In this document: positions 11,201 to 15,118 of the stretch, in pieces
Numbering within the stretch: the first letter of the stretch is position 1
Layout: every line of letters begins with the position of its first letter
Assembly (NCBI GenBank): GCA_027604505.1
Contig: JADIIX010000016.1
Span: forward strand, 186,001 to 233,841
Reading direction: 5' to 3'
DNA: 47,841 nt
DNA from: Gonapodya sp. JEL0774
Taxonomy: Eukaryota
The notes under the pieces: model-generated
The model's database searches: none
Seen by the model: the letters and a program-made list of their open reading frames with translations, nothing else
What the model was told of the DNA's origin: nothing
Translations under genes and position numbers: made by a program

Positions 11201-12654
11201 TGGCGACCCTCTGTGGCGGCACCCCGCCTCCAACCATTCCAAAGGGACCTGTGTCCTTGACCGGGTTGCTGCCGACCGCTGCATCTGTCGTGGACCCTTC
11301 ATTCGCTGACACATCAGCAAACGGGTTCATTTCCTCCATACACCAGCAACCCTTGTCGGCTGATCCAGGTTTACCGAGTGCGGTAGCGGATGGTGTGCCA
11401 GTGTTAGAAGAAGGGGATCAATCTCCCTGTTCTCCTACTCCCACGCCGTCTGAACGCCCGATTCTCACACCACTCAGTATTTCTCCTACTCCTGCAACCG
11501 AAATTCCGAGTAGCATGCTATTTCACAAGTTTCCACACCCTAACGTTCACTCGTTGCCCTCACTACTTGCATACTTTCGGCTACTCGTTGATCACTATTC
11601 AAGTATCATCCATAAAGCGGAGTTGGCGCGTCGAGGTGGCCGTGGAATTGCGGACTCTGTTCTGGAAGGATCCACGCTGCGAGCTCTGTTCTCTCCGACC
11701 AGCGCGGTGCCAAACATAGAAGACTTGAAAGCGTATGAAGATCATGTGAGGAAGCAAGCGAAGCCACGAAGACCTCCTATCAAATATGGGCAGTGAGTAT
11801 GAATTTCCATTTTTTTGGGGGATCATTGGCAACGGACCTGGTGTACTGGCAGGTCGTACGGTTTGGGAACTCGTGGTAACAGAGACACTGCAAACGAAGT
11901 GTCAATGGAGTGGGAGCCACGATCGCCGGAAAAGGTTCTGAGCAAAATCCATATCTACGCCGGAGAGTACTTAGAACGTGAGCATCCTCGTCTAGCTTTG
12001 TGCTGGAGCATGACCTTACTGTATCATTCCTCAGGGATTACATTCTGCTTCTCTGATGACACCCGAAAATCCGTCGGACGGCTCCTCTTCTACAAACCAC
12101 CAGACTTCACTCTCGTTGTTCCGCCTGGCGAGCACATCAGGAGCGTCAGTGGGCGATCTGGACATTGGATTGATGGTGTTCAGATCCAGCTCACTGATGG
12201 AACAAAAACTCCCTACCTAGGGGGACAGGGGGGTAGTGTGTTTTCAAGCGCAGGAGGAGCAAGCAGCGGCACGAAGCCCGTTGTAGGCGGTGTCAAAGCG
12301 TATGGAGCGACGGATCACTATGTGACCAAGCTGGGTTTTGGATTCTGCGACCTGGAGTGGGAACAGAATCTCAAAACTCGGAAAGGAGCGCGCAGCGGCG
12401 ACGCGGGCTCGGATGATGGTGAAAATGAAGAGGCAGGCTACACAGAAGATGCACTGATGGACTTGCGTGCTCTTTTCCCGCCTGGTGCGGATTCTGTCAC
12501 TCTTCTGTTAGAAGTGGGAGAAGATGGTTCTGAAGGTCAGACATTGACAACGCAGGTAGAAAGCAATGTTGACCCAGTTGGAGAGGGTCCTTCTACTGGA
12601 GATGAAGACGTGAGTGTTATGGCCTTCTCCGCGGAACTCTCACCAACCCGCTAA
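8230..12654 (+). CDS. F-box protein with C-terminal jacalin-like (beta-prism) lectin domain
   Basis: Exons 1+2 give FPGLPSE|LQGHVLVYLDPESLSKIRLANKAGNDIL (F-box). Phase-compatible GT..AG introns join the ORFs at 8617, 8917, 10072, 10555, 11107 and 11815. C-terminus GEHIRSVSGRSGHWIDGVQIQLTDGTKTPYLGGQGG..YVTKLGFGF (jacalin-like), then an acidic tail. Confidence 0.7.
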
Positions 12655-12794: not shown

Positions 12795-15118
12795 TTACAA
12801 TAGTCCTCCAATGCGAAGCCATCCAACCCTCCATGGGCCAAACATACTTTTTGCTGGACTCACCCGATCCGTGGCTTCACATGTCATCAGTAATTCTTGA
12901 ACCACAGTTTCAGCATAGTTATATGGATAGACCAGCTCCTCAACTGTAGCTGCCGGCAATTCAGGTGAAGACAACGCAGGAGATGCCATGGACGGCACAA
13001 ATGAGGAGATAAGCCTTTGAAGGGACGTAAAGGGTGCCTTGATGAGGAGGAGAAGACTGTGATTACTGCTTGGAGGTTCACTCACCGCCGGGTCGAGTCG
13101 GGCAGAATATTCGACGCCGCGCAGTCGAGGAAAAGAATTTTCAGAGCTTTGGGGAAACACGGCGGAGGGGAGGGGATGAGGTGGGTGGGGAAATAGCCGT
13201 AATCAGGTAAGTGGTTCTTAAGATTGTACACAGCAAATGCTTGGAAGACACACCTGGGGCAAGCTCTCCAGGTGAGGCCTCCCGACAGAGCGGAGCTCCA
13301 TTATCCAGAATGGCCAATCGAGCAATTTTCTGTTCTACAGCTGTCAAGGTCGTGCTCGTGACGTCCCTTTTCGGCCCGTCCGTCCACCCGACCCAACCAT
13401 CCCAGCCGAAAACCCATATGATCGCTCGAACATCACGACACTCGGAACTTTCGGTCACTCTCATGGAGCGCAAAACGAACCGATAACTTGCGTGCGCTTG
13501 AACACGTTCCAGGAGGTCGGCAGCAAGGTAATCTATAATAGACGGAGACGGTAGAGGTCGAGGGGGCAGCCCTGAGTTCACTGGTGACTTTGCAGAAAAT
13601 CGAACGGCGTATTTGAGTAAAGACACCACCGCTTCAGGAGCAACCGCAGGGCAGAGAGACGGAGAACAGGAGTCCAGTGGAGGAGAAAATGATCCGAGTA
13701 TACTCCGACAACATTGACAAAGAATTGGGCGAGGGCCGTAGCGAGAATGGGAGGAGGAGTCACCCAGACTGACCAATGGGGGAGACGGTCCCTGCAATGT
13801 CCAAGAAAACAAAAAGGCACGTTCCTCAAGTCAGATGTATAACGGGTACTAAAGTCAGAGGAATCACGGCAATTCTTGAGATGTTCTCCTGTAACTATCT
13901 TTTCCTCAAGAGATCCGTGGCAGACTCAAAACGCCAGCTCACTCATCGCAGCATCCTGTTTTTGTCGCTCGAGGCCACGAGTGCCGAATGACGGACATGT
14001 ACTACAACGAGGAGCAATGAGAACGTCCCGAGTACCACGATGAGGGAAGGATTAACCACCAGGATGCCCAACATGAGCAGTTGCATTCACTTTTGGAGGC
14101 CAGTATCGGCAAACAAGCAACGCACGGTCTTGACCGGCTGCCTGTGGCCACCATGAGCAAAGGTGGGCGCCTGCTTGAGCCTCCAGGAATAACTTTCAGC
14201 ACTCTCGTACACGTAAGACCGTGCATACAGGCCAATGTTGCCTCCTGAAGTGCTACGACTTCAGATACGTGATGGACATGCCAAATCATCATCCACATCG
14301 TTCTGACTCTTACCCACCTCCGCCAGTTTCGCCGAGTTCGTCGGCTCCATGAAGTCAATCTCAGCAATACTCTCCCAGTCTAATTCGACCCCGTTCAAAG
14401 CGACGGCGTCGTCGGAGACCAAGCAGACACCAGGTTCTGGCTTCCCAAACACCTTTCTGGCAGTATCGAGCTTTCCATCCCGATTAAAGTTCTCGTTGTG
14501 ACACATCCAGGCATCAATGAGCTCGTGCCAGTATGGGGATGGTAGAGAGAGAACCGAGGTAAAGAGACGATCGTTGGGTGGTTGGGGTGGGTCGGAAGGA
14601 GGGTTCGATATGCCGACATCGCCGTGCTCGTTCCGAGTAATTTGAGCGCCACATGTACCACAGACGATGGCACAAACATTTTCAATGTCCTTCGCCGAAA
14701 GAAGTCGGATAGAAGATTCGACCGACTCGGATGGTCTTTTGGAAACTCGCAGCTTCATTTCCAAGCCGGGATAGACCTTCCTTGCAGCTTCGTCCTTGAC
14801 GGTTGTTGCTAAAGACGAGGAAGCTGGCACTGTCCAAGTCGCGGACAGCTGCAAAGAAGAGGGATCCACAAGAAAAGCGGGATGGAAGGAGAGAAGCGAC
14901 ACCCGCGCCTCGGGATCTGCAAGTGAGGGAGCGTACAAAAGTTGTCTAGACGATGAGGAGAAATGGGCGAAGAGAGGTTTCCCCTGGGAGGCTGCGGATG
15001 ATGGGGGGTTCCTGACAACCACTGAGACCGAAACACTCGCGATGTTGGGCAGGTACTCGACGAACACAGAAAACGCATTAGAGAGAAAAGACGAGGTCGC
15101 ATTCGCTTGAGCGCGCAT
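12795..15118 (-). CDS. UBE3D: HECT_2 / E2-binding protein, UBE3D (Ipa1) family
   Basis: EYLPNI N-terminus, CGTC, LPSPYWHELIDAWMCH signature, second CxxC (ILCQCC), C-terminal FGPWRVGWL. Long intron 13792-14317 joins LAE|GPSPP in phase 0. Confidence 0.85.
14094..14185 (-). ncRNA. Candidate structured intronic RNA (three-way junction) in the UBE3D/Ipa1 intron
   Basis: Minus-strand fold by eye: UGGAGGC/GCCUCCA closing stem, internal loop UCAAGCA/GAUACUG, GGCG/UGCC stem, hairpin CCACC/GGUGG, hairpin CAGGCAGC-CGGUC/GACCG-GUUGCUUG. Confidence 0.55.

Follow-up and report, generated by a model that had tools for sequence, protein, structure and literature searches.

A probable box H/ACA-type guide RNA in a long intron of a UBE3D/Ipa1-like fungal gene, with a predicted target in U2 snRNA

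Position 42 of the yeast U2 small nuclear RNA (snRNA) is a known site of pseudouridylation (PMC6049503). In Saccharomyces cerevisiae, this site is served by snR81, a box H/ACA RNA whose 5' pocket guides pseudouridine 42 of U2, while its 3' pocket guides pseudouridine 1051 of 25S RNA (PMC6049503). Within the 5' pocket, U42-G43 of the target is left unpaired, C41 faces a G of the guide, and seven base pairs form on each side, where eight in total are the working minimum (PMC6049503). The subject of this report is an element of 92 nucleotides (nt) found in a stretch of 47,841 nt from the fungus Gonapodya sp. JEL0774 (contig JADIIX010000016.1, positions 186,001 to 233,841). We call the whole of this stretch the window and number all positions within it. 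A gene resembling UBE3D/Ipa1 carries the element in an oversized intron, on the minus strand. This intron is likely to host a box H/ACA-type guide RNA, with the element as its 5' hairpin, and the guide is predicted to direct pseudouridylation of U2 at the equivalent of yeast U42.

The modified position in U2 is conserved from yeasts to vertebrates (PMC5733568). In vertebrates, SCARNA4 (ACA26) and SCARNA15 guide pseudouridine 41 of U2, which is the equivalent position, and these RNAs can replace snR81 in yeast (PMC5733568). They are, of course, animal small Cajal body-specific RNAs, and what likens them to the RNA discussed here is the shared position in U2. Among fungi, snR81 itself has been reported narrowly. 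The survey "The fungal snoRNAome" reports it in Saccharomyces only (PMC5824354), and a study of the Candida parapsilosis group looked for it there and did not find it (PMC5033589).

The likeness to snR81 is one of layout and predicted target, as judged from the published description; a sequence-level link is not established. Both RNAs have two hairpins of the H/ACA kind, with the U2 guide in the 5' hairpin and several pairs to either side of the pocket. In both, U42-G43 would stay unpaired and a G atop the 3' strand of the pocket would face C41. Unlike snR81, however, the RNA described here is hosted in a UBE3D intron, and the top of its 5' hairpin is branched.

Fungal intron-encoded small nucleolar RNAs (snoRNAs) are released from their introns by splicing followed by exonuclease trimming (PMC5033589). 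The present RNA resembles them in that one guide occupies one host intron and lies on the strand of its host. It differs in that the host is a gene for a 3'-end-processing cofactor rather than a gene for the ribosome or translation, and in that the pairing of host and guest is kept across very divergent loci. Ipa1/UBE3D is a cofactor of the 3'-end endonuclease Ysh1/CPSF73. A different kind of conserved structured RNA, the thiamine pyrophosphate (TPP) riboswitch, is a known cis-regulatory RNA of fungal introns. Here, too, a conserved structured RNA sits within a fungal intron, but it matches nothing in Rfam, and its conserved letters are predicted to pair with an RNA in trans and are spaced from H and ACA boxes as in H/ACA RNAs. 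The intron-hosted box H/ACA guide RNA is a known class, and the family in the UBE3D intron is a new member of it. The excerpts that we have of the literature on introns or snoRNAs of Ipa1/UBE3D, and on the host genes of snR81, describe no RNA in this intron.

A conserved RNA unit in the homologous introns

Relatives of the host gene were collected by scanning metagenome contigs with an alignment of its first exon that included 15 distant homologues. This returned 106 stretches encoding a relative, from which 80 loci were kept. The frame runs uninterrupted in two of these, L027 and L066, which are contigs of spliced transcripts. With the protein of L066 as a tblastn query, 50 loci show a gap of 265-460 nt at one shared position in the gene. 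This gap immediately precedes the CxxC motif, where the intron of the window also lies. For one locus, L046, whose flanking exons are 98-100% identical to those of L066, the boundaries can be read from that spliced contig; the intron (1383-1767) is 385 nt long, and the next two introns have 53 nt each.

The long gaps share blocks that are 70-80% identical over ~110 nt, in loci whose exons show 55-76% protein identity to the L066 query. The letters GATAC stand at the matching position in 50 of 50 gaps, and 43 of these have the strict AAGAA pattern in addition. The initial annotation of the window, which was made from its letters, had named a motif of the form AAGAAG...GAUAC in other Ipa1 introns, and this turns out to be correct.

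The unit that these introns hold begins, 5' to 3', with a stem (P1, GGACG/CGUCC), a loop strand that ends in AAGAA, a second stem (P2) with a branched top, and a strand that starts with GAUAC, after which P1 closes. One nucleotide later comes a motif of the form A.A...A, then in some lineages a small extra hairpin, then a second hairpin and the letters ACA. The second hairpin has invariant loop strands of its own, AACAAC and GCUAC. In some lineages, the branch point and the 3' splice site follow immediately after the ACA box. The AACAAC strand (columns 68-73 of the alignment called A2 below; for example in L046, within 1598-1696) has the same letters as a stretch of stem IIa of yeast U2 (PMC4712673), the same letters rather than their complement; this likeness is probably a coincidence.

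Two covariance models extend the census. The first, R2, describes the 5' hairpin and was trained on 45 sequences. It matches 73 of the 80 loci at an expectation value (E) of at most 1, and 70 at E of at most 0.01. All of its matches lie on the strand of the gene, 200-350 nt past the WMCH motif, and 26 of the matched loci stand outside the training set, several of them with compact hairpins of 65-140 nt. The second model, R3, adds L003 (E 2e-7) and brings the total to 74 of 80. The six loci that remain include the two spliced transcripts, L027 and L066, where R3 has no significant match and the whole intron has plainly been removed. Two others, L032 and L080, end ~60 nt past WMCH, L034 ends ~190 nt past it, and L025 is unexplained.

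That last locus merits a remark of its own. L025 (1096 nt) is the sole complete-looking UBE3D locus of the 80 that is without the RNA, and its CxxC motif follows WMCH by only 179 nt. Given so short a distance, this lineage may have lost both the long intron and the guide.

The hairpins are backed by covariation. Alignment A4, made by MAFFT alone from the 5' hairpins of 45 distinct sequences, has 93.9% of its cells paired; sliding the partners lowers this to 15-46%. Both sides change in 10 of the 16 pairs. It holds 77 compensatory cells, where shuffling gives 29.4±6.2 and none of 500 shuffles reaches 77. A broader alignment of 52 loci (A6) has 94.8% of cells paired and both sides changing in 12 of 16 pairs, figures that come from an alignment fitted to the model and hence leaning towards that structure. 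For the 3' hairpin, alignment A2 gives 79.9% of cells paired against 39-56% with slid partners, and 11 of 13 pairs change on both sides; the register of the lower stem of this hairpin shifts between lineages. One further alignment, A5, had its 5' ends out of register and was left unused. The initial annotation had looked to orthologous introns for a conserved AAG(A/C)A/GAUAC loop with covarying stems, and in many other loci these are indeed there.

Geometry adds to this picture. In all 45 aligned relatives GAUAC is invariant, and in all 45 an invariant A.A begins one nucleotide past P1. The hinge box that follows has the strict form ANANNA in 26 of the 45, and a relaxed form, A.A..(.)A, which may be one nucleotide longer, in 41. 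From the base of P2, which is the top of the pocket, to the H-like box there are 15 nt in 41 of 45 relatives, 14 nt in three and 16 nt in one. The terminal box stands 14 nt from the base of the second upper stem in 41 of the 42 relatives, and it reads ACA in 35, AAA in three, AUA in two and is displaced by one in two. The relatives therefore present the layout of hairpin, hinge, hairpin and tail, with covariation backing both hairpins. An H-like box, a second hairpin, an ACA box and a spacing of 14-16 nt are the marks of H/ACA RNAs, and these marks argue for a guide that acts in trans rather than for a switch that acts in cis.

The copy in the window and its predicted pairing with U2

R3 was built from 52 loci with the window left out, and it was run with filters off on both strands of the entire window. 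It returned a single significant match in 47.8 kilobases (kb), at 14184-14087 on the minus strand (17.4 bits, E 0.0067); the runner-up among the 13 matches listed scores 7.5 bits (E 2.3). R2, likewise, puts the element first among 15 matches, with E 0.92 over the whole window and E 0.01 over the intron alone. No copies of the element were found elsewhere in the window.

In the R3 alignment, P1 is matched by GGAGGC/GCCUCC of the window, AAGAA by AAGCA, GAUAC by GAUAC and the hinge motif by AAAGUGA. This alignment is what identifies the 92-nt element as the 5' hairpin of a guide RNA (14095-14184, minus strand; a three-way junction), and what had been described as its internal loop would be the pseudouridylation pocket. 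P1 joins GGAGGC (14184-14179) to GCCUCC (14100-14095), and a further pair, U14185-A14094, is possible. The 5' strand of the putative pocket, UCAAGCA, occupies 14172-14178 and its 3' strand, GAUACUG, 14101-14107, both on the minus strand. P2 joins GGCG (14171-14168) to UGCC (14111-14108), and above it stand the CCACC/GGUGG hairpin (14166-14148) and the second hairpin of the junction (14144-14113). Every pairing listed in the initial annotation is present in 14185-14094 of the minus strand, and the three-way junction proposed there is also the minimum-energy fold. Directly after P1 lies an H-box-like hinge, AAAGUGA (14087-14093, minus strand), which R3 aligns to the hinge consensus AGAnnnA and which has the relaxed form only. 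The same form of 7 nt occurs in several relatives, for example as AGAUUGA. The distance from pocket to hinge in the window's copy is 14 nt.

Folding energy, by contrast with homology, is not distinctive for this element. On the minus strand, it is -40.0 kcal/mol (z-score -1.95), a value that 10 of 200 shuffled sequences equal or better. On the plus strand, it is -38.9 kcal/mol (z -1.68), equalled or bettered by 12 of 200. The initial annotation had held that the fold works on the sense strand only; since both strands fold nearly alike, thermodynamics does not carry that claim, and its expectation that the energy would stand apart from shuffled controls was likewise disappointed. When all 47.8 kb are scanned in 11,938 windows of 92 nt, the composition-adjusted energy is lower than that of the element in 62-70 of them, which come from at least 30 distinct loci. 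The intron as a whole has a z-score of -1.45. What lifts the element above chance is homology.

The letters held constant in the loop have a putative partner in U2. Yeast U2 is printed for nt 31-78 in a published Methods section (PMC4712673), where GUAGUAUC makes up nt 34-41, U42 and G43 follow, and UUCUUUU makes up nt 44-50. Over the stretch that the pocket would bind, a human-type U2 mimic has identical letters (PMC12342898). Against the printed yeast letters, the GAUAC of the relatives is the reverse complement of nt 37-41, and the longer GAUACUAC seen in several lineages is that of nt 34-41. On the other side of the pocket, nt 44-48 have AAGAA as their reverse complement. The invariant letters of the loop are accounted for if they pair with the flanks of U42-G43 in U2. 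For the window itself, GAUACUG is predicted to form seven pairs with nt 35-41, one of them G-U, and AAGCA four pairs within nt 44-48, with one C-U mismatch. Both of the predicted pairs that adjoin the unpaired U42-G43 are intact.

These pairings suggest how the RNA could work. In U2, the pairing of the 3' strand of the pocket (GAUAC...) would reach as far as C41, and that of the 5' strand (...AAGAA in the relatives, AAGCA in the window) would begin at U44. Between them, at the base of P2, U42-G43 would have no partner, just as the 5' pocket of snR81 leaves them. The guide RNA itself would be cut from the spliced intron of the UBE3D/Ipa1 gene: once the intron had been spliced out and debranched, exonucleases would trim it as far as the bound proteins Cbf5, Nop10, Gar1 and Nhp2, leaving the RNA. 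Such an origin would account for an intron several times as long as those beside it. In the relatives, the predicted RNA would measure ~250-290 nt, an example being 1436-1693 of L046.

The 3' half of the window's copy can be sketched in candidate form. The minimum-energy fold offers a hairpin at 14003-14085 (minus strand), in which UGCAAC (14085-14080) pairs with GUUGUA (14008-14003). A candidate ACA box (13998-14000, minus strand) lies 2 nt past this lower stem of six base pairs. Both assignments are unverified, and a clean pocket was not found in the hairpin at 14085-14003. An identity of 9 nt (UUUGAGUCU) between the 3' end of L005 and the window in the 13930s was judged to be chance.

Part of this region is also seen in a library made from RNA. 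In run X1, a freshwater metatranscriptome in which 0.07 of the sampled words are present and in which DNA carry-over is possible, a contig of 187 nt (depth 3.1, strand unassigned) matches 13917-14103 without differences. Over the stretch of 2.1 kb compared, X1 gives this one exact contig and a spurious piece of 36 nt; the remainder is uncovered, and no inference is drawn from that. The minus-strand z-score of 13917-14103 is -1.77. Two observations belong beside it. Downstream of the candidate ACA box, 13917-14037 of the minus strand forms a near-continuous hairpin of ~45 pairs, many of them G-U. It folds on the minus strand only (z -1.77; plus strand, +0.45), and its 3' end is the end of the X1 contig. 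In addition, a hydrophobic open reading frame of 47 codons (14086-13946, minus strand) lies within the intron and wholly under that contig.

Weighing the guide RNA against other readings

Several points weigh against a guide RNA in the window. The pairing with U2 was judged on the yeast sequence and the human-type mimic, whose letters may differ from those of this fungus. A cmscan of the region and of L046 against 4227 Rfam models at E of at most 10 assigned neither to a family, a null whose bearing on snR81 depends on whether Rfam includes a model of it. In the window's own copy, the hinge AAAGUGA falls outside the strict ANANNA, and AAGCA in the pocket departs by one letter from the otherwise invariant AAGAA. 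R1, a model of the 3' hairpin of the relatives, has no match in the window's intron, and a scan of the window for a canonical 3' pocket with ACA, AUA or AAA gave 37 weak, G-U-rich candidates, none convincing. Finally, the X1 contig, which may derive from pre-mRNA, a lariat or DNA, extends past the candidate ACA box by 80 nt and so does not mark a mature RNA of ~190 nt. As to R1, there is a control. Fifteen distant loci with a clear R2 match likewise have no R1 match, and at least some of them show a 3' hairpin and ACA by eye, so the failure of R1 in the window is not proof of absence.

The features peculiar to the window's copy might be read as signs of decay. Here, the copy would descend from an H/ACA guide, would have lost its working 3' hairpin and ACA box, and would now be an inactive remnant in an intron that is still long. 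The silence of R1, the want of a canonical pocket with ACA in the intron, the altered pocket letter and the non-canonical hinge box would all follow, as would the ~200 extra nt of intron past the candidate ACA box. Yet P1, P2, GAUAC, the 14-nt spacing and both pairs beside the unpaired dinucleotide are intact, a stem of six base pairs is followed after 2 nt by an ACA that is suitably spaced from the H-like box, and R1 also misses distant lineages whose ACA box is evident. We regard such a remnant as unlikely. That the element should be no more than an accidental fold, in a long intron like any other, is hardly credible. Its energy is, to be sure, unremarkable on both strands, and many windows fold as well, but a chance fold would not be expected to give the one significant R3 match of the whole window, in the homologous intron and with the correct orientation, or to recur with covariation in 74 of 80 loci.

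The remaining possibility is the one that the initial annotation put forward, a conserved switch in the pre-mRNA that acts in cis on the splicing of UBE3D/Ipa1, on a poison exon or on cleavage within the intron, whether alone or alongside a guide function (for example by pairing U2 in cis). An RNA tied to one host gene in 74 of 80 loci invites this thought. So do the in-frame combinations of splice sites around the element, and the 3' strand of the pocket, which in several lineages is branch-site-like and could bind U2 within the intron. Conversely, the H/ACA architecture with a target in trans accounts for every conserved feature, the homologues call for no extra exon, the spliced contigs L027 and L066 are without the whole region, and no riboswitch or other family of cis elements matches in Rfam. 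A cis-acting switch is therefore, in our judgement, very unlikely. What stands of the initial annotation is the structure, the intron and the conservation; the cis-regulatory role gives way to a unit with the H/ACA layout and a predicted pairing with U2.

The host gene, its surroundings and the meaning of a guide RNA there

The host gene runs on the minus strand. Its first exon (14318-15118) opens with an ATG at 15118, matches the Pfam family HECT_2 over profile positions 1-191 (E 3.4e-16) and ends at a GT at 14317. The second exon (13144-13791) matches the same family over profile positions 204-291 (E 1.9e-6) and carries the CxxC...LG and HASYRF motifs, which line up with those of homologues. 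The intron between them (13792-14317) has 526 nt, begins GTGGGT, ends TTGCAG and keeps the frame, just as the initial annotation had described an oversized intron in a gene of this type.

That annotation had also pointed to a CAG acceptor and a GTGAG donor on either side of the element. Their letters exist on the minus strand (CAG at 14247-14245, GTGAGC at 13941), and in-frame combinations of splice sites do flank the 92 nt. A hidden middle exon was nevertheless rejected. As many as 55 stop-free splice combinations are possible, but the alignment with homologues calls for none of them. When 11 distant homologues are aligned in-script with the gene, the linker at the junction of exons 1 and 2 is already longer than that of the homologues, so no hidden exon is needed.

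For this locus, the public protein collection includes a call of 285 amino acids (P0001; 14264-15118, minus strand) that runs past the splice donor to a stop at 14261. Because it reads through the donor, the host gene appears there, mis-called, as a truncated protein of a single exon. A word-based protein search found nothing near except this call. An exhaustive search of 1.84 billion representatives returned 22 distant relatives (best E 2.8e-9), and in the Atlas the HECT_2 clusters with known members are mostly from Ascomycota.

Other contents of the intron and its surroundings were considered and set aside. A mobile element was rejected; the window shows no element repeat and, by eye, no target-site duplication. 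So was a nested protein gene. The 47-residue reading frame mentioned above and four others in the intron have no Pfam family (best TarH, E 0.26), and the codon bias of this genome is too weak for judging short reading frames. Upstream of the H/ACA hairpin, the minus strand has AUGAUGA at 14292-14286, a perfect C-box-like sequence, and CUGA at 14264-14261 and again at 14199-14196. A box C/D snoRNA spanning 14196-14292 was rejected, there being no terminal stem by eye. Rfam, run at its gathering score on the whole window and on 20 loci, reported only a transfer RNA (tRNA), in L056, and a tRNA scan of the window found no tRNA genes. Weak Rfam matches outside the intron (E 2.9 and E 8.1) are of the kind expected by chance. 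Elsewhere, the most stable composition-corrected segment of 92 nt in the 47.8 kb is 12145-12236 on the plus strand (-42.6 kcal/mol, ~5.5 standard deviations below expectation), which sits within a plus-strand open reading frame (11803-12654).

Why, then, should a guide for U2 be kept in this one intron? One might suppose that across divergent fungi it has been locked there as a regulatory pairing, in which the output of the guide is tied to expression of a 3'-end-processing factor, and that its branch-site-like, anti-U2 pocket might also bind U2 in cis and so tune splicing of the host intron. We consider this improbable, a speculation to be held loosely, although the long-kept choice of host gene may deserve a look.

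For annotators of genomes, the finding offers an RNA gene that Rfam misses, together with a simple rule for locating it: the place to search is the long intron that immediately precedes the CxxC motif of UBE3D/Ipa1. A guide RNA would account for the outlying length of that intron. More broadly, the family is a candidate for the missing guide of U2 pseudouridine 42 in many other fungi.

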